From NCBI RefSeq assembly GCF_037042905.1, contig NC_087250.1, forward strand, positions 25,732,001-25,796,000: 64,000 bases of DNA, written 5' to 3'. Of the stretch, positions 2,441 to 63,652 are shown piece by piece (the first letter of the stretch is position 1; every line of letters starts with the position of its first letter). Position numbers and translations under genes: made by a program. The DNA comes from Lytechinus pictus. Lineage: Eukaryota. The notes below the pieces were generated by a model. The model was not told the DNA's origin and made no database searches. It was given only the letters and a program-made list of their open reading frames with translations.

Positions 2441-2730
2441 AGACCACATCCAGTGGTGGTCCTCCAAAATGGATACAATTTTGTTACGACTAAATGTCGT
2501 CCGTCAACAAAAGACGGAGCTTCTCTTTCATATAAAATATATAGTCAGGGTATATCCTAGTTAGGAATTTAAGTTTTACTTATATGAAAAATAACTTCAA
2601 AATTATTACATCATATGTTTTTGGTTCATTATAAAAATTGAAAAATAAGGTCTGTTATATGATGTTCATTGTTCATTACTGACATAATTGTAATTTTTTT
2701 TCATGAGTATACATTTTTTTATAATCGATT
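2441..2730 (-). repeat. Tripartite module copy
   Basis: AATCGATT 2723-2730; CTAACTAG (minus) ~2557-2564; ATTTTGG (minus) then stem-loop AGACCA..TGGTCC 2441-2462; shorter tandem paralogue at 3090-3320. Confidence 0.6.
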
Positions 2731-4069
2731 ATGATGACAAATTGTATTTCTATTTTTATATGCGAATAGTGACAGTGGTACAATCCCAAACCGTTATTAT
2801 GATAACAGTGTTATTCGCAGACTCGTACCTGTCACAAGTTTCATTCTAGCTTATTACTGGTATGTTTAAATCTATCACAAAGTAAGATTTTTTTGTATTG
2901 AAGAGATCCAATATTTTGCTCGTTCACTTCGCTCACTGACAGCTACCTAAAAAGCCTCATATTTTCAGCCCGGACCATCCCTTTATAATAATCCCAAAAC
3001 GGTTGTAATCTGTGACCGTCCACACTTGAGCAGGTTTAAGAGGAAAGCTATATAATGAAAATGTACTTTCTTTCTTATTTAGTATAATAAACCACCTGTC
3101 GGTGATGGTCTTACACAACTTATTCAATTTTATTGCGACCAAAAGTTGTCCGTCCACATGAACAGTGTAGTCTCATGTCTTTATATAATATATAGGTATT
3201 GTATATTCTAGCTATTAATATAAATTTGTAGGTAAATACAAAAACTAGAAGAAATGTGCATCATATGTTTTTGCTTTAGATTGTAGTTTTTATTAATTCA
3301 TTTTTTTCTAACTATCGATTTGTGATTATTACTGACACAAGTATCAGTATAGTTTTTTCATTAGTTATTTCCTTTTACAATGCGAGTAATGATAATAATC
3401 CAATCCAAAAATCGGTTAGTATGATAACAGTGTCATTCGCAGACTCAGTGTCATCATCGGACACAGGTTTAGTTCTAGTTGTTTAATTTTGTGCATATAA
3501 GAATGCATTCATACAGAGCAAAGCTCTCCCTTTTTATTAGTTCCAGTTGGACGATCTCTTCGTATAAGCTAATAGAAAAAAGCTGTCCCATGAAGACGCC
3601 AGCTTCATGTTTCAATATAAAAAGTCTGGTAAATAGAAAAGGGGACATATGAAGTTCACTGCAGTCATGGAGAGGTGCACTCCGCCTCAACAAAATCCTG
3701 TCAAACAGACTGATTCTCTCTTTTAAGAGAGAAACATTACATGACAGAAACTTAAGTTTTATCTACGGATATGTGACATATCGTACATATTTCAAGAACA
3801 CGATGACTTCGATACGAACTGCCTTCGCAGAATGCTTTGTGCTAAATTGAATGGCATAAAACAGTTAAAGATGACTTTCATCTAACTGCTGTATCAATCA
3901 ACCCATCCAGTGGAATCCCCAATCGAGATGAACTGACATTTATTATTTAAGACCCTGATGGTAAAGGTTTATCAAGCTAGAGGAAGATGGCTGCCTCTGA
4001 GTTTGGCGAAGCGGCAATACTCAAGAAGACATGTGAAGTACTGCATTGGTAAAGATATTATGTTGAAAG

Positions 4070-4379
4070 ATTCTGAAGTCAGGTTTAAGTTAGACCATGC
4101 ATGGTCTAACTCTGTGCTAAAATTATGGGAAGCCAGAAGTGTCAACATTGTTATTAAGTTGTATGTTTCTTATGTTTACTGTGCTCTCTCCTGATTTGTC
4201 GATGGTGAAGACAATCATCTCTTTATACTTCCTTGACAATTATGAAAGAGTTGAGAACCAAATGGGCTGAAATATTGTATCTTTTCTGTTAGTGATTTAT
4301 GTAACAATTGGCTGGCAATACTTTAAAACACAGCTTTAAACCTGAGTTTAAGTTAAACCCGACTTCAGAATACGGGCCA
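4070..4379. mobile_element. MITE (Harbinger-like), left end truncated
   Basis: TTCTGAAGTCAGGTTTAA ... TTAAACCCGACTTCAGAATACGGGCCA inverted termini; homologous to 9884-10207. Confidence 0.65.
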
Positions 4380-6878
4380 TGTAATCCTTTAATGAAGTCC
4401 AATGCTCAAAATTCGTTGTTAGAAGTACGTGGAGTAAATTGTTCGTTGTGGAACTATAGAACATCCCAGTCTGACTTTTTAAAAGTCTACTTTATACGCA
4501 AAATAAAACATCAGATGGTTTATCTATGGGTTTATTTATGAGAAGTTTTGACATATTGGGACAGTCTGACCAGCATAATAGAGAAAAACACAGGACATCC
4601 CATTTTCAGCAGAATGTTTTAACTTCATGTTGCAAGAGAACACTCACTATTGTAATCAAGATTGTGTTCGGCGGGGAACATAACTTCACCTAAAAATATG
4701 TAATCTAATGCCATTGATTGTTAAAAAGGAAAAGATTACAGAGTTACATGTTTTATCCTCGTTTTACCATAAGGATCGATCAGCCCATAGAAACCAATGT
4801 ATCGGGCCATCAAAATTTCATTTTGTTAAAGTCAAATCGAATTGAAACTAAATGGATATTGAGGACAAAGTAGTATATCAAGTTTGTAAAATATTTTCTA
4901 GTTGATATTCTTAGTCATAAAACTTTTATTTAATTGATATTTTTATTAAAAGCATTTTTTAAGCAGGTTGGATTTTAAACATTTAATATTACAAGTGAAA
5001 TACACTATAGTAGACTTGTTAACTGCAAAAAAAGGGGTGAACGCTGCATTTTTTAGTACAAATGTCCCACTTGGCACAAATGTTCCTTGAGTCAAAAGAA
5101 AAAGATTCATCCAAAGAGACACGCTGTATCTATGCAAATAAGCAAGTAATTTGCATAAATTTGCATATTAGGTCGATATAGTGGAAACAAGTATTTAAGA
5201 ATATATATTTAACCAGAACTGCCCTAAAATTTGAAATAAAGACTTAGGGTAAAAAAGGGAAGAAAATTGACATAAAATGATTGGGATATCCTTGTTTATT
5301 ATTACCTAATTTACATGAATTATGCAAATTATAATTTATAACAAAGTATTTTTTCATGAATCCTGAACTGTTTCATAAATAACAGCAATTAATACACAAT
5401 GTCAACATTCTACATGAAAGAGAATATATTAGGGAAAACATCGATATGCTTCATGACAGTATTAGTGTCTTAAATTTGCTTAGAAAGAGGGCAAATATGT
5501 CAAAATGTATGACGTGATATTGCGCTAAAACGAGACCAAAACAACCTCTACGTCACAGTCACACTCACGAATAGGACAATAAAGCGACCAATGGTATGTC
5601 ATTCGAGATAACACAATCTCAACACATTAGCTTCCATCGGCTTCTCGTATCGCTTTTGTTGGTGTGTCTGCCACACCGTAATCTATGGTATATACGGACA
5701 AAATGTATTTCGGTATCGGTAAAACACTATTAATTTTGTTTTATTTGTTTCTAATTTGTTTCTCTTGGAAAATTTACAGGAGACATTGCTTTGCAGGTTA
5801 CTGCTTTAATGAAACTCTGGCACATGAATCATGACGAATGTACCCCAACTCAATCCATATTTTAATTTTGTTAAATTATATATCTTTTGGAGACCCCGAA
5901 GTGGCAAAACTGCATTCCCCGCGGCATTCCCGCTACTTTACAAAACCAGTTTGACTTGTATTATCGACTTGGAAAAGACAGATGTATGAGACATCAGTCA
6001 ACATGTTTCCTATAGAAAGTTTTTTGTTTATTTAAGCCTACGCCAACGGGAGCCCTTTGAATTTACCCCATCCTCTCTCCGTATTTTGACTTTAAACTCT
6101 GTTTGCGGATAATGATACAGATTTTTACACCCCCCCCTTTCTCCCATCCCCTCTCCCTACTTAGTCTAAAACCATAGTTTCCAGAGCATTTACAATTCAT
6201 CAGCTTAATTCAATTCCTTTCAAATTATGTGGGCCGATGTCATTTATTTATTTGTTATGTTTATTTGTAATTTATTTTGTTGGGGACCATAATCATTATT
6301 ATCATTATTATCAATATTATTACATTTTTATATTATTATTATATTAAAAAATCTGAATTTGAATGTCAATCGGAAGAAATAAGAAATGAAATTGATTGGA
6401 CAAACGATAAAAAACTTCTTATTTTGGTTTGATTTTGAAAACATAATAACCGTTTAGGTTACACAGAATCAAATTTGAAAATTTGTAAGCTCCTCGCAGG
6501 GGGGGGGGGGGGGCACATGATGATAAAATAGTGGTAATTCTGCATGGTCAGGGAGAAAACGCCAATGATAACCATTGTTATACCGTTCCAGTAAATCCAA
6601 AAATTGCTTTAGATCACTAAAAGTTTTTCAACATCACCTCAAAACACTCTTACGCACCCCCCCCCCCCTCTCTGTGGTATTAGTTAGAAAAATCAATAAT
6701 GGTGTTATTTTCATCATCGATATTACCATCATTATTCATGAGAAATGCACTGTAGTGGAAATATATATGCATTGTAATTTGTTCGAGGTAAAATCTTATT
6801 TTTCCTGGAATGTTGGAGCAGGTAGTTATCTCTGGGTTATTTGTTATAACACACAACACAAAATAGCAAATATCATGT

Positions 6879-7184
6879 GATCGATTATTTATTTTAACGA
6901 CCGTTTCCATCCAGAAATATCCAAACACCGACTTAAAAAAAGTTAATTAAATGTATTGGATTTTTTAAATAAAACTAACATATGAAAAAAAAATTATAAA
7001 AAATTGCCCTGTAAGATATAGATGAATAAAGATTCATAGACTAACAATTTATTAACTAGAACATATTTTACAAATAAAAATTACTGATAAGCAATTGCCA
7101 TTTTGTTGATCTTAACAATGAAGATTTAATTTTAAATTTGATTTCCAACTTTTGGCAGACCAAAGATTTACATTTTCTTGGTCT
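6879..7184 (+). repeat. Tripartite module copy
   Basis: GATCGATT 6879; TTAACTAGAA ~7052; ACTTTTGG then AGACCAA..TTGGTCT 7157-7184. Confidence 0.65.
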
Positions 7185-9425: not shown

Positions 9426-9736
9426 AATCGAATATATAGTAATCATACGCTTTTCAATTTCTTTTCAATTATATCCACACACCAAGTTTTGGTAAATACT
9501 TTCGATGCAATCGCAAAGCAATGTATCATTTTTTTAAATCCCTTAATTAGAAAAAAAATTATGAAACATTGCGCTAAAAAGTATTAAAAAAAATAATCTT
9601 TACAGGCCGACATTTCGTAAACTAGAATAAAATTTCAATTTTTTTTTTTTTTTTCAGCATCTCATTCAAGTCAATTCCTACAATAATTTGATAAAAAACA
9701 AATTTTGGCAGACCAGGAGATATGATCTCTTTGGTC
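9426..9736 (+). repeat. Tripartite module copy
   Basis: AATCGAAT 9426; TAAACTAGAA ~9618; AAATTTTGG then GACCAGGAGAT..ATCTCTTTGGTC 9711-9736. Confidence 0.65.
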
Positions 9737-10735: not shown

Positions 10736-11042
10736 AATCGATTACACTATTTGAAAAACTATTTCTATAGGGAACTACCCAGACACTAATTTATGGAAAG
10801 TTGGTTTAAATTTCTCCTTTTCTCAAATACCTTCATATTAAATGAAAATATTTTTATTGAAAATAAACATTGCCTTTCAAAATAGAATAAACGAAAAAGA
10901 ATGATTGCCCGATACGATTAAACTAGATTATATTTTACACATAAAATATATTCATGATCCTACCTCACACTAGCCGGGTACGCTATCGATTTTATTTTTA
11001 AACAATAAATTTTGGCAGACCAGAAATTGTATTTCTTTGGTC
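10736..11042 (+). repeat. Tripartite module copy
   Basis: AATCGATT 10736; TAAACTAGA ~10919; AAATTTTGG then GACCAGAAAT..ATTTCTTTGGTC 11018-11042. Confidence 0.7.
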
Positions 11043-13258: not shown

Positions 13259-13558
13259 AATCGATTAAAATATATTTTAAAAAATCCGAACTGTTTTAAT
13301 TTGTTCACCCCCCACAAAAAAAATTATCAATATACTAAGCTACGAAATTTATTGATTCATCATTTCGTGTAAATTTTTCACCGAAAAGGGCAAAAATAAA
13401 TAATATTTTCCTTCAAAAAGTAATTCGATACAATTAACTTGTTAATTTAAATATTTTTAATGGTATTACCGCAAACCCTGTACAGCACTTAATTATCATA
13501 CTTTGCATTTCATTTGAAATGAAATTTTGAAAGACACCGACATACATATGTGGTGTCT
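13259..13558 (+). repeat. Tripartite module copy
   Basis: AATCGATT 13259; TTAACTTG ~13434; AAATTTTGA then AGACACC..GGTGTCT 13532-13558; paralogue of 39595-39894. Confidence 0.7.
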
Positions 13559-15083: not shown

Positions 15084-15388
15084 AATCGATTACTCGAAGA
15101 ATACTAAAAAATGTATAATTATTGCACTTCGCCTGTCTTGATTTTAGTTTTTACATCAACCAAAACCAGTATTTATTTTCTTATTTACCTAACATTTAAA
15201 ATAAAAAAATAGAAAAAAAAATTAACATAAAAATAATTTACAAAAACAATGGTAAAAAATACAAGGTTAACTTTTTAATTATTAATTTTTGGGGTAATAT
15301 AACCTTAATGGATGATATAAAAAGTAAGTTTAAGCATAAATTAAAAAAGTACTAATCTAGTTTGACACTAAAATTGTGTGAGGTGTCA
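15084..15388 (+). repeat. Tripartite module copy
   Basis: AATCGATT 15084; TTAACTTT ~15266; TGACAC..GTGTCA 15363-15388; upstream 14916-15038 matches 43962-44152. Confidence 0.65.
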
Positions 15389-17277
15389 CTGTCATGTACG
15401 AAGCTGATATATTTTGAAAAATAAGTCCCTAATTAACATACCCCAGTTACTTCAAAATACATGTTGAATGAGGTCTAAATTTAAAAGCTGCAAAATGAGC
15501 AGAAATGGTCATGAAGGGTCAATACAGAACATGATTATTTTGTCTGTGTCAATGGTAGTCTAGTGTAGTGATGGTTCTGTGACATGGTTTGAGTCGTGGT
15601 TTGAAATACCCATCCATGTTTGTTTGTTTGTTTGTTATGTGTTTGCTTGTGCAGAGGTGTGTTTCATTCCATGTTATTGTTGATGTTAAGGTGCATGAAA
15701 ATAATTAAAAGAAACCGCTGAGAAACTCACTCATCACCACTGAAAAAAGAACAGTGACTTTCAATATTGTGTCATTTTGCAACTTTTGAATTTTGACCTT
15801 GCCCCACATTTCAAGGCACTGCACCTCTATGTGAACGACAATCGTATCATGTAGGGTATCATTTTAAAGAGAATTAACTTTTCTATTCATTGATATTAAT
15901 TTCACATTTATATTTCCTAAAACCGAGGAAGGATTATCGATCAAAGTCAGATTTCCAAACTTTTTTAAGGAGTTTATATAGATGTTCACAGACATTCAAA
16001 AGTCTTACTTCTTTTTTTTACGATTTTATCAGTCTAACAAATTTTGCAATGCACCATTCTGTGACAAGAATGAGTGCCAGATGATTTACTTGAATATCAC
16101 AGTCTTCCTAAGTTCTCACAGAAGGTTGCGCTGGTTTGCTGCGTTAGAAATGATTAAAAGACATCCCTTTCCTACACTACTTCAATCCCTTTTTTTTTGG
16201 GGGGGGGGGGGATGGGCAGCTCCACCATGGATATCGAAACTTCAAACTCTTTTGTTCCCCATGTTCATGTTCACAAAGTAGATATATCGCAACAATATCA
16301 ACATTAAACATAAACAGGGCGCTTTAGCAGAAAATTAATGAAATGTTATAAATTGTGATGAATGAAACACTCGAGCATATCAGTTTCACCCCCAAGAACC
16401 CACCGTATGGTTTCAGCCCCCTCCCCCGACCACACCGTATGGCAACGTAGCAATAAAGTAGAATGGGAGAATCGATAATAGCACATTTAACACACAAATT
16501 TAGAAAGAAAGGAACTCTGAATCTAAATCAAATTCATTGATAGATTTAGCAAAAAAGGCATAGGAAGATACATTAGAAAAAAAAAAAACATTCATTTCCT
16601 ACAACACGCTCTACTTCATTTATTGATTTTTTGGGGGGAGGGAGGGGCGGGGGGCAGGGCAGCTCGACCATCGATAACGAACTTTGAAACTCTTCATGGT
16701 CGCAAAGGTTTTTAAAAAATTGTATCGTATTGAATATAAAAATGAAGCAAAAAAAGGTCATATTTAGTATTAAATAAATATTGTAAATCATTTTGATATG
16801 ACGGAGGAAGAAATATTTGACCATATTAATTAGTTTCGTTTACCTCATGAGACAGTGTTTCCAATATGAAGAAAATTACCCGATTTCCGGGTATTCTGGA
16901 TTATTTTCAGGTTATTCCAGGTAATCCAAAAATTACAATAAAAAACAATCAAAAGTTTCAACTTTTAATATTCATGTTATATAATCTCAAAGAACTGTTT
17001 ACCTCCATAAGTAGCTCAAAATTTTCCGCTCGCTCTCCGCGCTCGCATTTCGAATTATATTCCAATTTCTAAAGAGGGAGTCAACAAAAAAATGTTTAAA
17101 TTCCTTGTTAGGCTCGCGGTATTATTGCCTGATTCTTATTAAAAATCAAGCTTGAAAATTACAGGAAATGTCTATGAATTTGGGATGCAGTTTCTGGATT
17201 TTTTTTTTAGAAACACTGCCCTGAGAACCATTCTATAGACATATTAAAAAAGTAAAACGAATAAAACTGAATTAGAG

Positions 17278-17299
17278 AATCGATCATACATATATTACC

Positions 17300-18143: not shown

Positions 18144-18450
18144 ATTTGATCATAATTTTAGGTTTACCCAGAATATCACAAAATATTCAGTAGGAAAAAA
18201 ATATATATTTTTTATTTGAGATTTACGCAAAAAAATGTATTTTTATGTATTCTTCCAAAATATTTTTTTTATTATTTATTTTGCTTATGAAAAAATACTA
18301 TAAAGCAATAATATAATCATAACTTTGTAAATTATATCTTTAAATCTAATATGCAATATTTGTTTCCTGCATTATTTGATATGAAGTCTTTTGGTGATCT
18401 TTAAAAAAAAAATCAATGTTTGGCCAGCCTGAACATTCGTAAGTTTGGGC
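18144..18450 (+). repeat. Tripartite module copy with degenerate first box
   Basis: ATTTGATC 18144; TAACTTTGTAAATTATAT ~18320 (same as ~22960); TTTGG then GCCTGAAC..GTTTGGGC 18427-18450. Confidence 0.55.
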
Positions 18451-18799
18451 CATATATCATTTGCAGTCCAGTAGAAAATATGCATACGTGGAAAAGTTGA
18501 AGATGAAGTACTAAGTTGTTTAGTTGATTGATGTTCTACATCGGTATTGAAGTTAATCCAGCTTGGTTGCATATGCCACCTTGGCGATCTTGAGCATTTT
18601 ACGCCTAATTAGCATAATCATCTAATTAGCATGCATACAATATGTAATATGCTACTTCTCTTAAACCATAAAGACTTAAACAGTAGAAAGATCTTAAATT
18701 CCGCAGATGTCAACGGGTCATCAGTCATGTCAGTAGCACACCAGGAATCGCTGATGTTCCGGTCATTTGAGTGCTGTACACCTCCTCCTGGAATCACCT

Positions 18800-22768: not shown

Positions 22769-23084
22769 AATCGATTAAATTAAAGGTTAAGAGACATTCA
22801 TTACACATTATATATTTTTTGGAAACAAATAGGTTTGTTTTATTTCTAACATTATTTTTCAAATATTTATATATTTTCATGCTTTTAAATTAACTAAATT
22901 TTATTTTAGGCATGTATTGTTTCTTAAAAAAGTCTTTAAAACGGATTATTTGTATTCGTTAACTTTGTAAATTATATATTTTTATAAGGTATATTAATTT
23001 TCGGTACCACAATTCAGCGTATGGAAAGTGGTTTTTCAAACAAAAGTTAATTTTGACAAGCCCCATTTTATTTCAATTGGGGTT
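22769..23084 (+). repeat. Tripartite module copy
   Basis: AATCGATT 22769; TTAACTTTGTAAATTATAT ~22959; AATTTTGA then AGCCCCA..TGGGGTT 23059-23084. Confidence 0.7.
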
Positions 23085-24582: not shown

Positions 24583-24905
24583 GGCCAAAGAAACCGACGA
24601 TTGTTCTTTGGCCTGTCAAAAAAACTTTAACCAATCACGTAACAGTATTGTTACGTACGCTACATAAGTAGGTCTATAAATATATATTTAACATTTTAAA
24701 ATAATTTTCTTAGTGAAAAAAGATTATCGATGCTAAAATTGTTCTTGATTTATCTATTTATTGTTTAAGTGACAAAAATAAAATCAAAAAAGGATTTTAG
24801 TAGTTTTTTGTGATTCTAAAATAATATAAAACTCGATACTATTTCAGTAAAAAAAGCATTAATAACATAATTTACGTGTGGATTAATTGTCGAATTGAAT
24901 CGATT
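24583..24905 (-). repeat. Tripartite module copy
   Basis: AATCGATT 24898-24905; on minus TTTTTGACA then GGCCAAAGAA..TTCTTTGGCC 24583-24613. Confidence 0.6.
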
Positions 24906-32279: not shown

Positions 32280-32298
32280 ATGTGAGTAATCGAAGTCC

Positions 32299-39594: not shown

Positions 39595-39894
39595 AATCGA
39601 TTATAAATGGCATAATTATGTAAATGATATTTATTTTAATTTGTCCATAAAAAAACAACTATGTGTATATTATTTAGCTAAATTTTTTCATGAATTTATG
39701 ATCTTTTTATATTTTGCACCATACAAGGCAAAAAAATAACATTTTACAAAAATGAAATATTTTGATTAGCATAACTTTCTAATTGGGGTACCTTAAATGT
39801 TATATATTAGATTCCTTTCCCTCAATTGATGCCATCCTATGACAAATTTATATTTAAGAAATTTTGACAGATACCATTTAATGTTAATGGTGTC
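39595..39894 (+). repeat. Tripartite module copy, followed by a 5'-truncated copy at ~39930-40158
   Basis: AATCGATT 39595; AAATTTTGA then GATACCATT..AATGGTGTC 39870-39894; next copy has CTAACCTGCC ~40030 and AAATTTTGTCAGGCAC ~40124. Confidence 0.65.
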
Positions 39895-43258: not shown

Positions 43259-43384
43259 ATTACCCTGATGAATTATTTACTTTGTTCTTAAATATTTTTA
43301 CCAATACATTAATTTGTGTATATTATATACGGCATTTCATCAAAACAAATTTTGCCTGGCACGAATATTATCAAATTAGTGTCA
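43259..43384 (+). repeat. Partial tripartite module (first box lost to an upstream repeat)
   Basis: TTACCCTGATGAA ~43260; AAATTTTGCC then TGGCAC..GTGTCA 43357-43384. Confidence 0.5.
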
Positions 43385-44188
43385 TATTCGTAACCGAAAA
43401 TGTTTTAAAGTGAAGTCTGTTTCAATTACTTCCCAAATATTTCCCCGGCTCTTGCTCGAGCTACCACCACCGGCGCTCAGTGCATTCAAGGAATTAATCA
43501 TACCGGGTACCCATTCACCTCACCTGGGTCGAGTGCAGCACAGTGCGAATAAATTTCTTGCTGAAGGAAAACACGCCATGGCTTGGATTCGATATTTCGG
43601 ATATAAATCTGCGCCTGAAACATTTGAATTATCAATCGTTAAAAGATTTTCCTTTTTTGGGGATTCGGGTCATGCCATTAATCGAATAAAAAAAAAATGG
43701 AAAATTGAACAATCGATGATACAGTTTTCCCTAAATACATTATTGAAAGCAGTTTCGTTTTTTAACAAAGATAAGCAAGGCAGAGGGAACAGAGAGTCTT
43801 CGTGATCACTATGCAATACGTTATATTACGCAGAGCAGATAATTTCTCGTAAAATACCCTTAAGTGACAAAACAATCTTTGTCAAAATCTGTGAATCCAA
43901 ACATCAGTGTAATCCCGGACTCTGGACAAACGACACATTTGCAATTTTTCGTCCGGTCAGATTCTTCAGACGAGCTTCTGTTGTCTCAGTCCACCAACTT
44001 TCAACAAAAACCTCTCAGCTGTCCATTATGATTCGATTTTCACTTTCAAAGAAATTCGTACGTTGTAAAAAGTGTCTGCGTTTTAATTGCAAATAATACT
44101 AATACTTTGAGTAAAGATAGCAAGGCGAAGGGAGGAAACAATCGCATTTTTGGAATTGATAAATCAAAATGTAACAATGAGATGGTAT

Positions 44189-44482
44189 AATCGATTACAA
44201 ATCGAATTCTATTGCGGGTCTCTCTCTATTTTTTCCGGGGTGGGGGGTAAAATTAAAGAAACCTCTACTTGTCTGCCTATTTTTTATTTTCTTTAATGAA
44301 AAAAAAAAGAAAAGTGATAACTAAATAATTCGGGCAATACAATTATCAATAAATACAGAACTAACCTGCTAAAATATGCATTTGTTATTTATATATACTT
44401 TAACAACAGAATTTTTATTTGAATAAAAATTTTGAAAATTAACGCAAATTTTGACTGGCACCTAGCATTTTCTGTGGTGCCA
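44189..44482 (+). repeat. Tripartite module copy
   Basis: AATCGATT 44189; CTAACCTGCTAAA 44361; AAATTTTGAC then TGGCACC..GGTGCCA 44456-44482. Confidence 0.75.
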
Positions 44483-45888: not shown

Positions 45889-46196
45889 CATCGATTACAA
45901 TTGATAAATGACAGGAATAATACTCATTAATCAGAAAGAAAACAAGACTATTTTTCTGAATGATTTTTAAAAATAAATTTGCTTTAATATAATACAATAT
46001 TTTTTTGTACTTTCTTTAAAGCATTAGGGATTTTAACTGATTAATACTCAAATTAATATGGATAATTTATTGTTAACTATTTAAATTATATATTTTTGAA
46101 AATTTAAATAATTCATTTTGCAATAAGTAACTACTATATTAGTCTATCAATTCTAACATGTATTTTTGCAAGCCCCGACATGTTTGTTTGGGGCTT
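45889..46196 (+). repeat. Tripartite module copy
   Basis: CATCGATT 45889; TTAACTATTTAAATTATAT ~46073; ATTTTTGC then AAGCCCC..GGGGCTT 46170-46196. Confidence 0.7.
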
Positions 46197-50206: not shown

Positions 50207-50262
50207 AGAAGTAGTAGATGATAGTTGTAGGATGCTATTTTGCCACTATACTACTTCTTTTT

Positions 50263-52150: not shown

Positions 52151-53568
52151 TTAAAAGTGGGCGGAGCGACTACGACCCTGTTAGCAACGCCTGTTAACAT
52201 CGTTTTGCACACTCGCCGTAATGTCTGCGATATTAAAATTCTAAGAACCAATGAAATCGTTACAATTTACTAAAGCTATGAATGTTTATTATTTACATTG
52301 ATTATCGGTGTACAAACTTATACCGAATTTACCAGCAAGTGTCGGTTATAATCAGTCATTTACGTAAGTGTTACAAAGTGCCAACATTTATGAAAATATA
52401 GCGTAAATTTTAAATGGCATTTCAAAATCCTTATTTTTCACTATCTTCATAGTTTTTAATTGTTTTTAAAACATCTTGTTACATTTACTAGAATTTTCCC
52501 GAACTGCGAAAGTTGGTAGAACATTTTCTCCCTTATTAATGAGGAAATGGCAGGCCTTCGAATTCAGGTTAATTTTTGTTATATTTCTAAACAAAAATCG
52601 TTAGATTCGAACTACTATACCAATTGTTCGCCCAAAGGAGGGTTATCATCTCATATTGTTGTGTAAATGATACATAAATTAGGAGTGTAGTTATCAATGT
52701 TGGACAACATTTTTCACGATGATTTTCGTAACGAAGAGAAAAATCAAGTTTATTCTTAGCACGCGAGCTGCAGGATGATAAATTTTAGCGCGCGCCGACT
52801 GAGCTGATCGCCCTGGCTGTCCGTTCAGATTATCCAGTCCAATACCGGTGTCGGGTGGTGTATTCCACGTACCTTTTCCCTGTGCGATGACCACTGTGCA
52901 ATTTCAGTGATTAATTTTGATACTCGATCTCTTTTTCGGTAATTATTATTTCTTTCCTGAATAACAAAACGTAAAAAAAAAATTTTTTAAAGGACGCAAG
53001 TTATTTTATATGATAATATTCTTTAGTGTGACCTTAAACCTTCGTTCAAAATCTTGTCCGTGACTCGTGAAATTTAATTTCGTATTAATGTAGCAATTCA
53101 AATGATAACAGCAGATTGGACGGTTATAAGGGGAAGCACCAACTGAACAACATGGCTCCAGCATTTCCTCGCCGCGGAGATATTCGACGCAAAGTGGAAT
53201 CGCATGAAAGATTACACTTTTTCCAAATCCTGTGGGTAGATTTACAAACCCATCCTTTCAGTGCATATTTAATTGCATCAACTTACAATTCCTGAAATCG
53301 GTCAATATACAGCATATTAGAAGCACATTCAATGCTCTTTGACATTTAGTCGTCTCTCTTCGCTAAGAATCCACGGGTCGCCATTTTCCTCCATTTCAAC
53401 ATGAGCTCTTGAATATTCAATATGACGTCATGACATGATTTTCAGGGACCAATTTTTGGTCGCAATATCGGTAGAAATAATATCAAAGCAAAAGATAGTT
53501 GGTAAGATTCAGTTCAGATGCCACTTCTAAAACTTTTTACGTTTCCGATAATGAGCTCAAATGAATAT

Positions 53569-53871
53569 GGCACCACTTCAATAAATATTGGTGCCTTGCT
53601 AATTTTTTATTAAGACTTTTAAATTTGTTCAAATATTACTAGGACTGAATAAAATCTTAGAATAAAAAGAAATAATATTATATTTACTTATCATTTGTAT
53701 TGCGTTCTCTTGAGTTGTTCTTCACTTAAAAACGATTCAAACGAGTTTAATTATTAAAAAAAAAATAGATAGAAAAATGAGTACAAGCTTTTGCTCATAA
53801 AGAAAGAAATAAAAATGTATAAAAAGGAAGGAAGACCTACTAATATATTATGTTTTCTTCCGTAATCGATT
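53569..53871 (-). repeat. Tripartite module copy
   Basis: AATCGATT 53864-53871; GGCACCA..TGGTGCC 53569-53595. Confidence 0.65.
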
Positions 53872-54157
53872 ATATGATTTCCAGGTAATGCGTTGAAGTC
53901 GCAAAAATGCGATTATTGCCTCACATTGCCTTGCTAAAATTACTAAAGGGGAAGAGCATAACTATGAATGTTAGATTGCTCTATCATGGAAGAAACAGGT
54001 ACTATACACAGATAGGCACATATGGGACTACATGAATGACAGGTGATACCCTAAGGAAGTTATACACATATTAAAGGTGTAACTCGGCACTGTTTGATGA
54101 GATTCGAACCTACAACTTTGACCTTTGAAATTATTTTGTACCGTAAAAAATCAAAAC

Positions 54158-54459
54158 AATCGATTACAATTAACAATGACCGGAATCATACTCAAGAATG
54201 AGGAGGAAAACAAACTTATTTGTATGAATGATTTATAAATATGATTTTTTTAAATATATTTTATTTTGTTTGGATGTTGTAAATATTTAAATCAAAATAC
54301 ATTTTTAATGATTAATAATAAAATTTATATGGGATATTTGTTTTATAACTGTTTAACTTATATATACTTGAATATTTATTTTATCCATTTTCCAACATAG
54401 TTGTATATCAATTCTAACATGCATTTTTTGCTAGTCCTGACGTGTATGTTTTGGGGCTA
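54158..54459 (+). repeat. Tripartite module copy
   Basis: AATCGATT 54158; ATAACTG ~54345; ATTTTTTGC then TAGTCC..GGGCTA 54432-54459. Confidence 0.7.
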
Positions 54460-54949: not shown

Positions 54950-55360
54950 ACTCAAGAATGTCATTAATTGACTGAATGGCCCATTATCCTTGGCAGTCCT
55001 GGCCGGGGCTTTGGGTTTAAACGAGAGTTATAAATTTTAGAGAATGGCAAGTGTGCAAGCCTTGATTCATAAGCAGGTTGTTTTTAAAGGGATTGAGTAC
55101 ATCACATGGCTTATAATTAATGGGTGGGGTAAAAAAAGGAGGGAGGGGGGCCGAAATAGTTTTCGTACAAAGGTGCCAACTTGTTACCGTGGTTTTACAC
55201 TTGACTGTTTACTTCTGCTGATGTTCTTAGTTGAAGTTTTCTGTTATGTATAAGCGTTTGGAGTGTAGTATTTTACTGTATGCATGGTATGTGTATTACA
55301 TGTACTGAGTGTATGTAAATATTGTATAAATGTTGATATTTTGATGAATAAAATTATTGA
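54950..55360 (+). mobile_element. 3' UTR-only copy of the Tx1-like family at 62686-63420
   Basis: Matches the reverse complement of ~62700-63100; absent from the paralogous site ~52590; AATAAA near the end; flanked by AAAGAAAA. Confidence 0.65.
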
Positions 55361-55435
55361 AAGAAAACAAACTCGAAATACTATACCTAACTGTTCGCCC
55401 GAAAGAGGGTTATCATCTCATCTTGTTGTGTAAAT

Positions 55436-56658: not shown

Positions 56659-57669
56659 GTGTAAATGATACATATATTAGGAGTGAAGAAATCAATGTTG
56701 AATAACATTTTTCACGATGAGTTCGTAATAAAGAGAAAAAAGTCATTCTCAGCACGCGAGCCGCAGAATGATAAATTTTAGCGTGCGCAGACTGAGCTGA
56801 TCGCCCTGGCTGTCCGTTCAGATTATCCAGTCCGATACTGGTGTCGGGTGGTATATTCCACGTACCTTTCCCCTCGCGAAGACCACTGTGCAGTTTTAGT
56901 GATTAATTTTGATACTCTATCTGTGAAATTAATAGTTTACCGATATCAAAAAAATGCTTGGAATTTACTTGACACATAAATTATTTCATTTTCGGTAATA
57001 ATTATTTCTTTCCTGAATTACAGAAAGTATATAACTTATGTCAAGAATGTGATAACATTGACTGTATATAACATTGTCAAGGTTTGGAAAATATGTTAAT
57101 TTTGCCCAATGTCATCAGTAATACAGAACATCTGTATATTATGTAAATTCCACAGCCGCCTCCACCATCATGTTACAGAATGAAGCCGACCTGGCCGCCG
57201 AGGGGAGAGGGGGGGACTATTTGTTAAAATCAAAGTAATAGCAATATTGCAATAGGCCTATTACCAGGCTCTCGTGTTTAATGAATTATAATCATGGTGA
57301 GTTGGGGGAAGTAAAAGCGGGTCAGTTGAAATAGATTGGGGGAGGGGGGTCGATGAGGAAAGAGAAAGAATTAAGGGGCCAACATGAGATTGCAGGCCGG
57401 TAGAATGACAGAGGGGCAAATAATAACAGAATATAGGGTAAGCTTTATTGGAGGAGAGCTTGACCATGACAGAAGGGAAGGAATAATATAATAACAGGTA
57501 TAATGTACTATACACAGATAGGAGCATATGGGACTAAATGAATGCCAGGGGATACCCTAGGGAAGTTATACACATATTAATGATGTAACTCGGCACTGTT
57601 TGATTAGATTCGAACCTAGAACTTTGACCTTTGACATTTGTACCGCTAATAATCAGAATGAAATGAAAC

Positions 57670-57967
57670 AATCGATTAAAACTAAAATTCGAGAAAAAAA
57701 AAAATAACCGGAATAATACACACCAATCCGGAGGAAAACAAACATATTAAAAAAAAAAATTAAGAATATACTTTTGTTCAAAATCTTTCATGTTGAATTC
57801 CTTTTTCAAAGCATAAGGGGTTTTATTTATTATATCTAAAACTAACTATGTAAATTATATATTTCTATATATATGCCATTTCCATTCCTTAATGACACAG
57901 CCGATTTTAATTATTACTATCAATAATATATATTTTGGCGAGCCCCCAACATGCTTAATTTGGGGGC
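57670..57967 (+). repeat. Tripartite module copy
   Basis: AATCGATT 57670; CTAACTATGTAAATTATAT ~57842; ATTTTGG then GCCCCCAA..TTGGGGGC 57942-57967. Confidence 0.7.
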
Positions 57968-58030
57968 ATGCATTAGAAGAAATAGCAGAAAAAAAGGATA
58001 TTGTCGCACTTGATCATATATATATGTATG

Positions 58031-58080
<50 letters not shown>

Positions 58081-58346
58081 GTATATATGACCAAGTACGA
58101 CAATATTTGACTACTCATCATGGGGTAACTTTGTTTAAGTAATACGTAATAAATTAAAATCAAAATCATCAATTTAGTTCCAAACCGTACGTGAACAAGC
58201 AGGGTGTGTTTGTATCCCTATCGTTTTCATTAGTCCCCCCCCCGCCCCGCCCCGCCCCCATCTAAAAAGGTGAGATTGTGTGTTTACAACCATATAGGTA
58301 TTAGTACAACGACTATGTACAAGGTTTCTTGGTACCGATTATGTAG

Positions 58347-58612
58347 AACACTACAATGACAATTGCAGTGCCAGATACAATTAAGATTAAAAATTCGAAA
58401 TAAACATACAAATCTTTGTGACGTTTAATAAATGACATGAAGAAAAAATAGTTCATTTAGCAGGTTAATGCTGCATTTTACTTATGATTGTATTGCAACA
58501 ACTATTCCTACGTTTTTTTTTTTTTTTTTTTTTTAAAGTACAGGTATTTGTTGGGGTGAAAAATAGAAATAAAAGCAGTGGAAAAGTAAATTGAATATCT
58601 GTAAAATCGATT
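58347..58612 (-). repeat. Tripartite module copy
   Basis: AATCGATT 58605-58612; TTAACCTGCTAAA (minus) 58456-58468; GGCACT..AGTGTT (minus) 58347-58372. Confidence 0.6.
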
Positions 58613-58677
58613 ATATATATTTTTTTTTTTTTCATGAATGCCCAACATGCGATCGTTGACTCCATTCTCCTTGTTAC

Positions 58678-58962
58678 AATAATGTAATAATAATAATATA
58701 GGATTTGTAAAGCGAACGTATCCACCTTGCTAGGTGCTCAAGGAGCTCCTATATTACCCCGGCCAAGCTAGTCAACCGATTCTAGTGCGCACAACTTTTT
58801 GAGGAAAGACTTCCTGCCGGTACCCATGTACCTCACCTGGGTCGAGTGCAGCACAGTGTGGATAAATTTCTTGCTGAAGGAAAACACTCCATGGCTAGGA
58901 TTCGAACTCACGACCCTCTGTTTGAACGGCGAGAGTCAGAACCACTAGACAACGACGCCCCC
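58678..58962 (-). mobile_element. tRNA-derived SINE with conserved core and L2-like tail
   Basis: Minus-strand head GGGGCGTCGTTGTCTAGTGG (A box) .. GTTCGAATCC (B box); core TGCACTCGACCCAGGTG..GGGTACC; (ATT)n tail; partial copy at ~43440-43592. Confidence 0.8.
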
Positions 58963-59493
58963 ACCACTGTACTAAAGAATGTACATTTTTAACTCAACAC
59001 ATATTAATTAGCACTTGCCATTTGATATGCTACATTTTCATACAAAATTAATATTACCGCAGTCATCGGCAATAATGTGATCACGAGGTCACACTGGTGA
59101 TTTCCATTTTCTTTTTAATGTAAAGCTTAACCGAACAGAAAGCAGTGCTCGACTAAAGTAAAGTTGAATGATCAATCGATACGCAAAACGCATGCGTTGA
59201 ATAGTCACATTCTTCAATAAAGTATGTAACTTGTTCATGATATCGACATTTTTAGTGGCATAATTCTCGGCACAATAAGATTTTTAGTGATAATGATAAT
59301 ACTAATAATATGATCGATAGCGTTTAATACTTTAATTCTCTAAGCGATTTACCTTGCATTTATCAAACATATTAATGCACCCATATCGTTTTTAGAATAG
59401 TCATCCCCCTCAATATCGGAAGGTAAAATATTGTATTTACGTAACATCTGGAAAATAATATAACCCGCTTTCATTCAACGTTTTCTCAATTAT

Positions 59494-59774
59494 GGACACC
59501 AAATGTAGCAATATTGGAGTCCGCCAAAATTTAAAAACTTATTTATTTGTTAATTATAACTGCGTATAATTGTTCAAATGAATTAATATTAAAAATAAAT
59601 ACATAAAATAAACGGTTATTCTCTTGTTCATAGTTGGATAATAAAAGTTATTTTTTGTTGATTTTTAAAGATTTTTTTTCAAAGGCAAAGGAGCAGATAA
59701 TTACAGGGTTTTTTTCATACAAAAACAAATGAAATAAAAACATGAAGAAGTATTATTTCGTCTTATAATCGATT
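59494..59774 (-). repeat. Tripartite module copy
   Basis: AATCGATT 59767-59774; on minus AAATTTTGGC then GGACTCCAA..TTGGTGTCC 59494-59522. Confidence 0.65.
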
Positions 59775-60372
59775 GTTGTCTTAACTATTAACGCGTGTAC
59801 AAAGTGAACTTAAACATATATATTAATTACAATTTGTTTTTTATTAGTTACATTTTTATACAAAATTCATTCTAGTATTACAGTAGTCATGGTAAAGAAT
59901 TTGACTGAGTTTCAAAGGTCACAATGAAAAAAAAAAATATATGATAATTTTTTTTTTAGTTGAGCAAGACCAAACAGAAAGCATAAGTAGTGCTCGCTTA
60001 GAGTACAATGGTAAGATCAATCCATACACAAACACGTGACTTCAATAATTACAGCCTTCACAAAAATGACATAAATTGTTTTCTCTGACACAATTCTCGG
60101 AATGGTATGAACTTTTCGTGATAACAATAATAATAGTGTCAACTAATATACAAATGATGCATGGGTTAGAGTGGGTCAGTAGGAACTGCACACGGTAACT
60201 TTGGCATGGTTTAGACCATAATACCAAAGTTACCGCGTGCACACAGTTACACTGACCCAAGAAAGAAACACATGCATCATCCATTTAATAGAATGGAAAA
60301 AAATATTGAACAAACAACAAAGTTAAATACCTTTAAAGATGGCAACATGAATATTATTACACGCACATTCTA

Positions 60373-60886
60373 AGGCACATACATTCGTAATTCCGAAGCT
60401 TCGTTATTCCGAAGGTTCGGATATTACGAAGGTTCGTTATTCCGAAGGTTCGTATTTCCGAAGGTTCGTATTTCCGAAGGTTTGTAATTCCGAAGGTTCG
60501 TTAGTCCGAAAACGAAATGAGGTTCGTAATTCCGAAGGTTCTTTACTCCTAAAACGAAGTGAGGATCGTAATTCCGAAGGTTCGTTAATCTGAAAACGAA
60601 AATATTTATTCCGAAGGTTCGTTAGTCTGAAAACGAAATGATTAACAAACCTTATTTCGTTTTCGGACTAACGAACCTTCGGAACAACGAACCTTATTTC
60701 GTTTTCGGATTAACGAACCTTATTTCGTTTTCGGATTATCGAACCTTCGGAATAACGCCACAAATGTTCGGATTAACGAACCCTTTTACGTTTTCGGATT
60801 AACGAACATCGAGGTATAGGCAATTTACGTGTTTTGGAATTGCGAACCTTCGAAATACAGAACCTTCGGAAATACGAAGTGTAACC
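60373..60886. repeat. Foldback element built of ~16-17-bp ATTCCGAAGGTTCGT repeats
   Basis: Tandem units on plus ~60385-60640, reverse-complement units ~60645-60880; ATTCTA on both flanks. Confidence 0.8.
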
Positions 60887-61083
60887 ATTCTAGGTCTCTT
60901 TAATGTAACGAGAATTTGAGATGTGGTAGTATGGTGATTGAGTGACCGAGTCCATAACAGGCACTCTCGGATTTTTATCGTTAGTCATGTCTCATCGTTT
61001 TGGAAGTTAAACTAATGAATCTATGGTATCACTGAATACAATTACAACACGGCCCTAGGTTCGATTGTGTTATATACGTTACA

Positions 61084-61368
61084 GGCACCACGTAAATAAT
61101 ATTGGTGCCATACAAAATTTAAGTATGACAAAGCATACTTTGAGCTGAAATTGTCGAATTAGAATATGTATATACAATACAAAAATGCATAATTTAGAAA
61201 GTTACTTTTTGAACTTTGATCAACGGATGGTAGTTATTATTTTGCTGTCAATATTTTAAACTTTTTTTTTTAAACGGTAAATAACTAATAAATAAAGGTC
61301 GTCGTTGACCAAAAAAAAATGAAATCAAATCAAAGAAAAGTAATATTATTTCTTCCTCATAATCGATT
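61084..61368 (-). repeat. Tripartite module copy
   Basis: AATCGATT 61361-61368; TAACTTTCTAAATTAT (minus) ~61189-61204; AAATTTTGTAT then GGCACCA..TGGTGCC 61084-61109. Confidence 0.7.
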
Positions 61369-62685
61369 GTTGTCTTACTAAATATCGAACTCAAGATATA
61401 TTAGGGGGGGGGGGGTTGGGAGGTAGAACAACACTTTTTATCTTTTTTTTCTCTCTTATCACTTCATACATCTTGTTCATATTTTATTTTGTAATTGCTG
61501 AAATGCATTAGTATTAATTTCTAGTATCTTTGAAGTTTGATGTATAATTTGTATAATTATAGTTGTTATGGATTTATTGTATAATTTATAATAATGTTTC
61601 AAATATTTTTAACTTGCTTATTGAATGTGAATGTTTATTTTCATTTGAGAGAATACAATAAAACATCCTTAAAAAAAATAGCATTTGTTATTTCATTTCT
61701 TACATTTCATACAAAATTCATATTGCAGTAGTAAACCTCAATAATTTGACAGAATATGATCATATGCTAATTTTTTTTTTTTTATTAAGCAGGAGCGAAC
61801 AGAAAGCATTGATTGTGCTTGCCTAACATAAAATGACACAGTAAATTTACACAATTAACGTATCCAAATCCATCCCTATTCATTTTTCAAAATAGACATG
61901 AAATGAAATACTCCGAAAATTTGCTTTGATCGTAGGTCCGATGTAGCGGTGGATCCGGTGCTAAGCAGATACGGTTCAAGGAACATTATCTGAGGGCGGG
62001 TCGTGTTCCAACTCCGGCGGATGGAGAACAAATATCGGTGTTTTTTTTATTTGGAAAATAAACAACAATAATAATAATAAAATCAAACCTGACAGATAGG
62101 TTAAGAGTAAAGAACAATATATGCCTTTAAGAATGATACACTGCAAAATATCTGGTGTTTATTTAACACCAGCCCTAAATCTATATATGTCCACACCAGA
62201 GAAGTGTTGAACACCGGTTCTGGTATTAGTCTAACACCAGATATTTTTTTTTATTTTTTTTTATTTTTTTATTAATTTGTATTAAAACAGCATTGGTTTG
62301 ATTCCAAACTGGTGTTTCAATACTTCTCTGGTGTGGATATATATATATAGATTCCGAGCTGGTGTTAAATAAAAAAGAATGTTACACATAACAAAAACCC
62401 CAAGTAAGAACATCGACAAAAGTAAACGGTCAATTATATATCACCATGGTAACATAAGGGGAAATAATATCACCCAAAACATATTGCGTGAATTATTAAT
62501 GATGTCCTCAATATTCTATGACAAAGTTATCGGTATCATTTTTTTTTTATCTAGTAAATAACAATGACAATTTCAGTAAGGCTTACCACTTTTCTATTCT
62601 AAGCGCTTTGCTATGTATTCCTTAAGTAATGCTGTCGTGTTTTATTAGTCATAGTCTCCAATTTGGTGAGTAAGAACTTTCCTCG

Positions 62686-63420
62686 TTTTTTTTTTTTTTT
62701 TCTTACAATAATTTTATTCATCAAAATATCAACATATGTACAATATTTACATACACTCGGTACATGTATTATACATACCAATAAAATACTACACTCCAAA
62801 CGCTTATACATAACAGAAAACTTTAAGTAAGAACATCAACAAAAGTAAACAGTCAAGTGTAAAACCACCACGGTAACACGTTGGCACCTTTGTACGAAGC
62901 CTAATTCGACGAAAAGGCCCTCCCCCAACCATTACTCTAAGCCAGGTGATGTACTCACTCCCTTTAAAACTACCCGCTTATGAATCAAGGCTTGCACACT
63001 TGCCATTCTCTAAAATTTATTACTTTCCCTTTAAACCCAAAGCACCGGCCAGGACTGCCAAGGATAATGGGCCATTCAGCCAATTATGTGACATTCTTGC
63101 AATTTCTGAGATGCCATAAAAAAAAAACATTGTGAGGTCATGATAACTCACACAAAGTATATTCTAACTTTACCCCCTTCTATTGAACATAATCTTGACC
63201 CTTTTACCCACAGCTGTTCAAACTGTCCCCTAGGTACTCTGTTAAAATCTATCTCTAATCTTAATCTAATCTCATTTTTAATTCTCAAAATTAACCCGTC
63301 ATCTGTAATTCTTTCCTTCGAAAACAAAAACCCGCATCGCTTAGCCCAAATAGCATTTTTTACAACGGTAAAAACAAACCAGGTTCGAGGCCAAGTAATA
63401 AGACTCTAACCGTACAGATT
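62686..63420 (-). mobile_element. 5'-truncated Tx1/L1-group LINE (ORF2 C-terminus, 3' UTR, poly(A))
   Basis: Minus frame reads KNAIWAKRCGFLF..IKNEIRLRLEIDFNR..FEQLWVKGSRLCSIEGGKVRIYFV, stop at 63148; poly(A) 62686-62701. Confidence 0.7.
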
Positions 63421-63479
63421 TCTAATTAATTACGTAAAGAGATGTTGATGAAATATTTATATTATTAATTATATATACT

Positions 63480-63652
63480 TTAGCAGGTTAATTCAATGTT
63501 TGCTTATCATTGCATTATGACATTATTTTACAGTTGATTTTTACCTTATTTGACTTTTCAATAAGGTAAAGAGGCAGATAGATAAAGGTGTTCGTTGATG
63601 CAAAAATGAAATCAAAATGAGAAAAGTAATTTACTAGCCAGTGTAATCGATT
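63480..63652 (-). repeat. Tripartite module copy truncated by the LINE
   Basis: AATCGATT 63645-63652; TTAACCTGCTAAAG (minus) ~63479-63492; the LINE occupies the expected hairpin position. Confidence 0.6.

Follow-up and report, generated by a model that had tools for sequence, protein, structure and literature searches.

U7, at 57–70 nt, is the smallest type of polymerase II (Pol II) small nuclear RNA (snRNA) and has a single-stranded 5′ arm, an Sm-type site, a 3′ hairpin, and snRNA-type upstream elements. A UCUUU box in the U7 arm is complementary to the histone downstream element. The SmY RNAs of nematodes (and the C. elegans 'snRNA-like' RNAs) are lineage-specific, clustered, ~70–90-nt Sm-class RNAs with snRNA-type promoters. 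The seven-membered Sm ring is known to assemble on an Sm site with an adjacent 3′ hairpin, and Sm-class snRNAs carry a trimethylguanosine cap. To our knowledge, new cellular Sm-class RNA families are rare, and the last examples were SmY and the single 'Like-U' RNA of flies. Among the criteria given for U7 in PMC5054213 are the deviant Sm site RUUUNUCYNG and the UCUUU box, and the U7 gene clusters reported there include those of sea urchins, frogs, and zebrafish. The HSURs of Herpesvirus saimiri are described as Sm-class RNAs with snRNA-type promoters, and the interactions described include pairing of their 5′ regions with host mRNAs and microRNAs (PMC6763288, PMC13158664, PMC4526738). We analyzed a 64,000-nt window of the Lytechinus pictus genome (C6:25,732,001–25,796,000; contig NC_087250.1, 812-Mb assembly GCF_037042905.1; ~33% G+C) that carries a recurring unit on both strands. 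The unit consists of a palindrome TAATCGATTA, then TAAC and an AT-rich stretch, then AAATTTTGR, and then a hairpin. An original prediction made from the letters of the window had described ~25 such modules as candidate snRNA-like genes. Our comparison suggests that the modules are probably Pol II snRNA-type genes, forming a lineage-specific clustered family. Their products would be Sm-class RNAs of ~70 nt whose 5′ arms vary and are mostly unstructured. Modules in the window are named by the position of their U-run (w-numbers), and pieces elsewhere in the genome carry L-numbers.

The statement that no known family could be assigned is borne out by Rfam searches of the window and of 20 loci. Rfam release 15 at gathering thresholds gave 0 matches in the window, and no match fell on any module at E ≤ 10 in the window or at E ≤ 1 in the 20 loci. 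Tandem or AT repeats and chance similarity account for the low-threshold matches listed. The Rfam U7 model gave no match genome-wide, with 65 of the 190,597 candidates scored, and none in the window (E ≤ 10) or the 20 loci (E ≤ 1). Searches of the literature did not turn up any such family.

The proposed likeness to U7 or SmY holds in layout, but the defining features of U7 and SmY were not found. The module arms are unstructured on average, as in U7. However, none of the 32 modules has the deviant Sm site, 3 of 32 arms contain the UCUUU box, and in place of one conserved guide there are ~10^2 copies whose arms differ. U7 identity was rejected on these counts and on the absence of an Rfam U7 match. 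The modules resemble SmY in having a canonical Sm site adjoining stem-loops, with a 5′ hairpin in 7 of 32. They differ in that most arms are unstructured and no sequence is conserved beyond the Sm site and stem; SmY is also tied to spliced-leader trans-splicing, and no sign of it was seen here. SmY identity was rejected because there was no Rfam match and only those 7 arms reach a 5′ hairpin z < −1.5. Spliced-leader RNAs are also short Sm-site RNAs, often in tandem clusters. That identity was rejected because the arms are unalignable between subfamilies, with no shared leader and no Rfam spliced-leader match; some arms (e.g. w57933) lack any GT between the predicted start and the Sm site. The 3′ domains of U4 and U5 likewise place the Sm site directly before a terminal hairpin. 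The predicted module RNA would have only ~30 nt before its Sm site, it shows no likeness to the functional loops of U4 or U5, and the module Sm word AAAUUUUGRCRG differs from that of U4 (AAUUUUUCC) and U5 (AAUUUAUUUCUG) in this genome. The nearest model for variable arms on an Sm core is the HSURs, a likeness drawn from their description; in contrast to the modules, the HSURs are viral, only seven in number, longer, and have conserved AU-rich 5′ elements.

Module anatomy and linkage of the parts

Box 1 has the core AATCGATT and lies 155–190 bp upstream of box 2, the TAAC, which is followed by 25–30 bp of nearly pure A+T. ATCGAT is located 244–283 bp and TAAC 85–97 bp upstream of TTTTG, with a single TAAC at 80. 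In most copies, the hairpin starts 2–3 nt past the G of the Sm word and has a stem of 7–10 bp and a loop of 7–13 nt. All eight box 1-to-hairpin pairs listed in the original prediction are present where it placed them. Box 1 does recur, but the form given for it is replaced by a 10-bp palindrome, RTAATCGATTA, made of two inverted TAAT half-sites. Fourteen modules in the window have all or nearly all parts, and the predicted ~25 is approached only when relics are counted. The intact modules are 1.3–15 kb apart instead of the 0.3–4 kb proposed. The sequence between the boxes is unalignable between subfamilies, as had been noted, but paralogs inside a subfamily align over 430–560 bp.

The association of the boxes, the Sm word, and the hairpin is well beyond chance. 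There are 20 copies of AATCGATT in the window compared to 2.80 ± 1.61 (largest 7) in 100 shuffles. A perfect hairpin, defined as at least 6 bp with at least 3 G-C pairs and starting no more than 7 nt after TTTTG, follows 22 TTTTG sites; the corresponding numbers are 6.6 ± 3.7 (largest 16) in 30 second-order Markov simulations and 8 in the reversed window sequence. A hairpin-blind test used the 733 TTTTG sites of the window plus 40 kb of flanking DNA and scored the fold of the next 42 nt. Both boxes lie at the right distances from 13 of the 733 sites, compared to 3.3 expected under independence. The fold is −8 kcal/mol or lower in 11 of these 13 sites, compared to 12.1% of sites lacking both boxes (n = 647), 5% of sites with TAAC only (n = 40), and 15% of sites with box 1 only (n = 33). 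Genome-wide, the three-part pattern gave 157 matches versus 71 for a backwards control, and AATCGATT-N244-274-TTTTGRCRG gave 75 matches versus 9 for its control.

Promoter comparison and the predicted transcript

The U1, U2, U4, and U5 genes of this genome occur in tandem arrays (periods of 1,405 bp for U1, 1,037 bp for U2, 1.2–1.7 kb for U4, and ~1,362–1,371 bp for U5) and as dispersed copies, and U6 is also present. Tandem U1 repeats of ~1.4 kb and U2 repeats of ~1.0 kb resemble the snRNA genes of sea urchins. Pol II genes that depend on the snRNA-activating complex typically have a proximal element ~55–60 bp before the start, a distal enhancer at ~200–250 bp, and a 3′ box 9–20 nt past the RNA end, and their transcripts are short, capped, and not polyadenylated. 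Among the loci printed, TAAC lies at −58 to −60 in 7 of 7 U1 loci, at −58 or −69 in 2 of 4 U2 loci, at −54 in 4 of 4 U4 loci, at −59 in 1 of 5 U5 loci, and at −65/−66 in three U6-variant loci. A weight matrix of the flanks was derived from 14 canonical snRNA proximal elements with the core excluded. The mean score of module box 2 was −1.69, compared to −1.18 for the canonical elements by leave-one-out and −4.75 for all 567 TAAC sites in the window (Mann–Whitney p = 5e-5 versus the modules). Box 2, which had been proposed to be a proximal sequence element, matches the proximal element of the genome's own snRNA genes in its core, its flanks, and the start distance it implies. The suggestion that box 1 is a distal element fits its recurrence upstream of one bona fide U4 gene (L065, AATCGATT at −260) and one bona fide U6 gene (L041, the best U6 copy, at −296), which are 2 of the 28 canonical loci printed. 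The U1 genes and one U2 gene have a palindrome ATGAATATTCAT at ~−255 to −290, and a 3′ box CAAAGAAAGA lies 9–20 nt past most U1, U2, U4, and U5 genes. The modules share the TAAC proximal element and tandem arrays with these genes, together with a putative distal palindrome and, in a few copies, the 3′ box CAAAGAAAGA, and the module clusters mirror the tandem U1, U2, U4, and U5 arrays. They differ from them in that most modules have no 3′ box.

Some arrangements of the snRNA genes were recorded in passing. The canonical U6 copy L041 (C18:14.85 Mb; 117 bits) lacks a TAAC element. In the variant U6 copies L042–L044 (C2:21.56 Mb, C6:16.10 Mb; 96 bits), the 5′ stem-loop differs and the promoter is a textbook one, with TAAC (−65) and TTTATATA (~−31). 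In the U5 array at C13:21.63–21.68 Mb, some neighbours lie on opposite strands ~540 bp apart, for example 21,636,019–137 (−) and 21,636,560–677 (+).

If box 2 acts like the canonical element, transcription would start ~59 bp after TAAC, ~31 nt before the U-run, and the predicted RNA would be 65–75 nt long. This start agrees with a jump in G+C and with a conservation boundary in one subfamily. Module G+C rises from ~10% at +10 to +35 from TAAC to ~40% at +40 to +65, and CAG/AGC words peak at +47 to +68. In the six copies of the w2469 subfamily, a strongly conserved block begins 58–61 bp after TAAC and spans the arm, the Sm site, and the hairpin, up to a 3′ box CAAAAGAAAGAAC. A run of U4–7 followed by G and a purine is present in 26 of 32 modules. 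The Sm-like site that had been predicted is of the canonical type, for which the consensus is RAU(3–6)GR, and a hairpin with covariation lies at a fixed 2–3 nt beyond it. The arms are AT-rich with a mean folding z of −0.28, and the mean z of the hairpin part is −3.17. A TAAC or branch-site-like word inside the arms was dropped as a feature, being found by eye in ~6 of ~22 subfamilies against ~20% expected.

In the mechanism we propose, the distal TAATCGATTA palindrome ~235 bp before the start would be an enhancer for a dimeric homeodomain-type factor. TAAC(Y) would recruit the snRNA-activating complex and fix the start inside the G+C-richer island. Pol II would make an RNA of ~65–75 nt with a ~30-nt AT-rich variable arm, AAAUUUUGR, and the 7–10-bp hairpin with its 7–13-nt loop. 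Given the Sm site and the adjoining hairpin, the product would be a capped nuclear Sm ribonucleoprotein (RNP).

If the modules were instead transcribed by polymerase III (Pol III) as type-3 genes, in which distal and proximal elements are joined by a TATA box at −30 as in U6, their RNAs would be ~30 nt long and end at the U-run, leaving the hairpin outside. A proximal element with a TATA-like stretch marks Pol III genes in many animals. Box 2 is followed by 25–30 bp that are ~90% A+T and contain TATATAT-like words, the genome's own U6 variants pair TAAC with TTTATATA, box 1 lies upstream of the best U6 gene, and the U-run would act as a terminator. Sea-urchin U2 genes, on the other hand, need a TATA sequence yet are transcribed by Pol II. 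The TATA-like words of the modules are also nearer to TAAC (+13 to +33) than those of the U6 variants (~+33). The hairpin past the U-run is among the best-conserved parts, with covariation and sense-strand G·U pairs. T4+ runs occur at varying places in 10 of 32 arms and would stop Pol III ahead of the conserved Sm site and hairpin. The conserved hairpin and these earlier runs favor Pol II, and Pol III transcription appears improbable.

Covariation, divergence, and distribution of the family

Covariation in the hairpin was measured on a sequence-only MAFFT alignment of 13 copies using a named 7-bp helix and 500 shuffles. Pairing is found in 83.5% of the cells compared to 72.3% in the shuffled alignments (0 of 500 reach it), and 16 cells are changed on both sides compared to 7.3. 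The covariation score is 0.485 versus 0.286 shuffled (0 of 500), and slid partners score 0.178 or less. Three stem pairs alternate in type: GC 7/AU 3, GC 5/AU 4, and AU 7/CG 5. The sense strand folds better than the antisense strand at 32 of the 44 hairpin-blind sites, with 10 worse and 2 equal (Wilcoxon p = 0.002), compared to 49% versus 46% in background sites. This bias is predicted by G·U pairs on the transcribed strand. C/U changes opposite G distinguish w39862 from its paralog L040 and w46164 from w54426 and leave the pairing intact, and a reading of the subfamily alignment shows a C-G to U-A double change in the L098 stem. RNAalifold found no consensus structure in a 23-sequence MAFFT alignment, as the subfamilies are out of register. 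A covariance model built from the 13-sequence alignment (R1) recovers its 9 window seeds. Its weak matches to other subfamilies (w11010, E = 0.017; w9703, 0.14; w2469, 1.4; w7150, 1.9; w24621, 7) mean that R1 is not a family-wide detector.

Segment identities were pooled over 13 paralog pairs. Identity is highest in the Sm site (0.85) and the hairpin (0.80), followed by box 2 (0.79), the inter-box spacer (0.75), box 1 ± 15 (0.73), the 5′ arm (0.67), and the pre-start stretch (0.66); the downstream segments are at 0.69 and 0.57. The 5′ arm is the least constrained transcribed part in most pairs, with the w2469 subfamily (0.93–1.00) as the exception.

Several observations weigh against the modules being functional Pol II genes. 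About 9 of the ~23 copies in the window are partial or decayed. The stretch from box 2 to the predicted start is ~90% A+T and TATA-like. The distal box of the modules is unlike the U1 palindrome ATGAATATTCAT. A word like the 3′ box within 40 nt of the hairpin is found in 6 of 32 modules from three subfamilies compared to a 7.5% background, an excess that is weak once paralogy is allowed for, and most modules have no recognizable 3′ box. It is exact (CAAAAGAAAGAAC) in L032 and L033, 10–12 nt after the hairpin, and takes a weaker form in w2469 (shortened), w39862, L040, and w57933. The sequences are related, and therefore the shuffle and strand-bias controls overstate independence. The arm and the pre-start stretch diverge about like flanking DNA, and the inter-box spacer is conserved nearly as well as box 2. 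This combination of fast arm and pre-start divergence with a conserved spacer indicates weak constraint on most of the unit and many young copies.

The broken copies, the fairly even paralog identity (0.66–0.85 across segments, including the spacer), the missing 3′ boxes, and damage to the Sm site or a shifted stem in 3 of the 6 w2469-subfamily copies are what a decaying pseudogene cluster would look like. An ancestral snRNA-type gene would have been amplified through tandem and segmental duplications, the copies would be silent, and the motifs would persist through recent duplication. This account is unlikely in our judgment. Box order, the 85–97-bp and 244–283-bp distances, the Sm word, and the position of the hairpin persist between subfamilies despite unalignable spacers. 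Stems of differing sequence still pair, the G·U bias is strand-specific, and conservation is highest in the Sm site and hairpin. The gene-architecture reading survives the tests run, as far as sequence reaches.

A genome-wide spaced-motif scan, proposed as a check for clustering, placed the true modules in a few clusters, mainly at 20–26 Mb of C6. Of the 75 pattern matches, 20 are on C6 (28.5 Mb long) at 20.06–26.07 Mb and 14 are on C9, including a tandem array with a 2.02-kb period at 26.36–26.51 Mb; smaller groups are on C16 (19.18 Mb) and C19 (4.68 Mb). Among the pieces fetched from these places, L028–L037, L039, L040, L084, L085, and L091–L094 are modules, each with an arm and a stem of its own. 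Of the 14 intact modules in the window, the three-part pattern recovers 7 and the second pattern 2; their genome-wide excesses of 86 and 66 matches suggest, by crude extrapolation, very roughly 150–450 genome copies. The C9 array (C9:26,361,369–26,514,811; L081, L082) and L083 (C9:14.12 Mb) contain a distinct module type. Each unit combines box 1 and TTTTGRCAGATCT with a hairpin that contains a bulge; a GGCGAAAT word is conserved, a CAAAGG-type word lies downstream, and Rfam gives no match. Of all the branches of the family, this one may be the most gene-like.

Paralogy also bears on how the copies spread. The six copies of the w2469 subfamily (w2469, L032, L033, L097–L099) are all on C6. Other paralogs are w9703 with L091 and L092, w24621 with L078:4827, w61117 with L079:1083, w39862 with L040, and w46164 with w54426. 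Homology starts 35 to ~170 bp before box 1 and ends 25 to ~235 bp past the hairpin, depending on the pair. Such differing limits are consistent with duplication at the DNA level and do not fit a mobile element whose ends are fixed. A non-autonomous mobile element (a Helitron end, a miniature inverted-repeat transposable element, or a short interspersed nuclear element), with the hairpin and palindrome as transposition signals, would account for units that are many, short, AT-rich, hairpin-bearing, and present on both strands among LINE (long interspersed nuclear element) and long terminal repeat (LTR)-type elements. Some other genome matches bearing AATCGATT are plainly dispersed repeats, for example the AATCGATTGTAATTTCCCTGTAAG family (C2, C5, C8, C10) and L086–L090; the latter and the AATCGATTGTAATTTCCC family are unrelated to the modules. 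The possibility of a Helitron, raised in the original prediction, or of another mobile element was checked for fixed termini, a hairpin 10–12 nt ahead of a CTRR end, target-site duplication, and dispersal, none of which was found. No terminal repeats, poly-A tails, or common word after the hairpin were seen either, and the true modules are confined to few clusters. A mobile origin is very improbable. The repeat in L088–L090 (C22:1.34 Mb, C3:79.59 Mb, C2:40.19 Mb) starts with AATCGATT, has two inverted octamer-like words ATGCAAAT and a TGACGTCA word, lacks a hairpin, and matches the Sm-word pattern by chance.

As snRNA-type genes, the modules would form a family on the order of 10^2 copies, with new members arising by local and tandem duplication and others lost through decay. 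The variable arm would be the only part able to give specificity, and we tentatively suggest that it recognizes other RNAs by antisense pairing, as U7 or the HSURs do. A bolder and rather doubtful extension is that the ~10^2 copies are programmable Sm-RNP guides, in which a constant Sm and hairpin handle carries diversifying 30-nt arms that each have a different RNA target. An equally speculative view is that birth-and-death evolution has built a cellular repertoire of RNAs comparable to U7 and to the HSURs of the virus. A family of this size, with a constant Sm handle and variable arms, would represent either a large set of unexplored RNA-guided functions or a striking proliferation and decay of snRNA genes. 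The modules are a natural series for the distal/proximal promoter code of this organism's snRNA genes and for the minimal Sm-core assembly signal. If the copies are silent, the cluster still documents the birth and death of snRNA-type genes.

Individual modules and neighbouring elements

The 14 complete or nearly complete modules, and the partial copies between them, are described in window order. Intact w2469 (2441..2730, −) has box 1 at 2723–2730, TAAC at −94, Sm site CCATTTTGG, hairpin GGACCAC/GTGGTCT, and a shortened 3′ box CAAAGAAC. Intact w7150 (6879..7184, +) has box 1 GATCGATT, TAAC at −97, Sm site ACTTTTGG, and hairpin GACCAAAGA/TTCTTGGTC. Module w9703 (9426..9736, +) has a box 1 with one change (AATCGAAT), a box 2 variant TAAACTAGAAT at −85, Sm site AAATTTTGG, and hairpin GACCAGGAGAT/ATCTCTTTGGTC. 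The same Sm site is found in intact w11010 (10736..11042, +) with box 1, a box 2 variant TAAACTAGAT at −91, and a hairpin. Intact w13525 (13259..13558, +) has box 1, TAAC at −90, Sm site AAATTTTGA, hairpin AGACACC/GGTGTCT, and a small hairpin in the 5′ arm. Next are two partial modules and a decayed one. The first partial module (15084..15388, +; U-run 15360) retains box 1 and TAAC at −92 with a degenerate Sm site CTAGTTTGA and a weak hairpin GACAC/GTGTC (R1 E = 1.9). The second (16990..17285, −; U-run 17021) has GATCGATT at −264, TAAC at −89, and Sm site AAATTTTGA with no stable hairpin (−4.6 kcal/mol). The decayed module (18320..18455, +; U-run 18418) has box 2 TAACTTTGTAAATTATAT, a degenerate Sm site ATGTTTGG, and a hairpin, and has lost box 1 (R1 E = 0.12).

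Intact w23051 (22769..23084, +) has box 1, TAAC at −91, Sm site TAATTTTGA, and hairpin AGCCCCA/TGGGGTT. Module w24621 (24583..24905, −) has box 1 at −284, a degenerate box 2, an Sm site with a run of seven U followed by GA, a 10-bp hairpin, and a strong hairpin ACGTAACA/TGTTACGT in the 5′ arm. Intact w39862 (39595..39894, +) has box 1, TAAC at −90, Sm site AAATTTTGACAG, and hairpin GATACCATT/AATGGTGTC. A relic (43347..43392, +; U-run 43350) has Sm site AAATTTTGC and a weakened GGCAC/GTGTC hairpin with no boxes (R1 E = 0.0095). Intact w44449 (44189..44482, +) has box 1, TAAC at −87, Sm site AAATTTTGA, and hairpin TGGCACC/GGTGCCA. Intact w46164 (45889..46196, +) has box 1 CATCGATT, TAAC at −90, Sm site TATTTTTGC, and hairpin AAGCCCCGAC/GTTTGGGGCTT. 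A decayed module (53560..53871, −; U-run 53600) keeps box 1 (53864–53871) and the hairpin GGCACC/GGTGCC and has lost the Sm site and box 2 (R1 E = 0.0093). Intact w54426 (54158..54459, +) has box 1, TAAC at −80, Sm site ATTTTTTGC, and hairpin TAGTCCTGAC/GTTTTGGGGCTA, which contains two G·U pairs relative to its paralog w46164. Intact w57933 (57670..57971, +) has box 1, TAAC at −90, Sm site ATATTTTGG, and hairpin GCCCCCAA/TTGGGGGC (−19.5 kcal/mol). On the minus strand, intact w59529 (59494..59774) has box 1, TAAC at −89, Sm site AAATTTTGG, and hairpin GGACTCCAA/TTGGTGTCC, and intact w61117 (61084..61368) has box 1, TAAC at −87, Sm site AAATTTTGT, and hairpin GGCACCA/TGGTGCC. Remnants lie beside the AATCGATT sites at 12852, 19667, 58605, and 63645.

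Ordinary paired RNA-seq (two raw runs and two contig sets) over 44001–64000 gave depths of 0–0.9 in the module bins, with libraries that lose 70-nt RNAs and bins of 667 bp. Reads pile up only on dispersed repeats at 51.3–52.7, 56.0–56.7, 58.7–59.3, and 60.0–62.7 kb. The segments 51338–52671, 56007–56673, and 58675–59341 have an RNA-seq depth of 20–100 and very high contig depth, and most of their reads continue into unlike sequence (share 0.86–0.91). These are dispersed repeats transcribed within other loci.

The module layout recurs between a LINE, an inverted duplication (29.8–34.0 kb), and a reverse-transcriptase element (47.2–51.5 kb). The LINE-type retrotransposon (25784–28721, −) has a 687-aa open reading frame (ORF) with Exo_endo_phos and RVT_1 domains, followed by a 290-aa ORF with the end of RVT_1. 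The split of RVT_1 over the two ORFs indicates that the LINE reading frame is interrupted once. The inverted duplication (29815–33965) contains a pair of 220-aa ORFs (29815–30477, +; 33303–33965, −) and a pair of 216-aa ORFs with one C2H2 zinc finger (30746–31396, −; 32384–33034, +), the members of each pair mirroring one another. The 340 bases taken from its AATCGATT sites (30061 and 33712) match exactly in inverted orientation. Four ORFs (304, 205, 249, and 406 aa) at 47185–51483 (−), one with a reverse-transcriptase domain, are probably an LTR-type or other retroelement. A tandem array at 60384–60875, with a 16-bp unit TTCGTAATTCCGAAGG and 42–68-bp multiples, gave weak chance-like Rfam matches (MIR2606, rox1). 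Its high read and contig depth indicate that related copies are abundant elsewhere.

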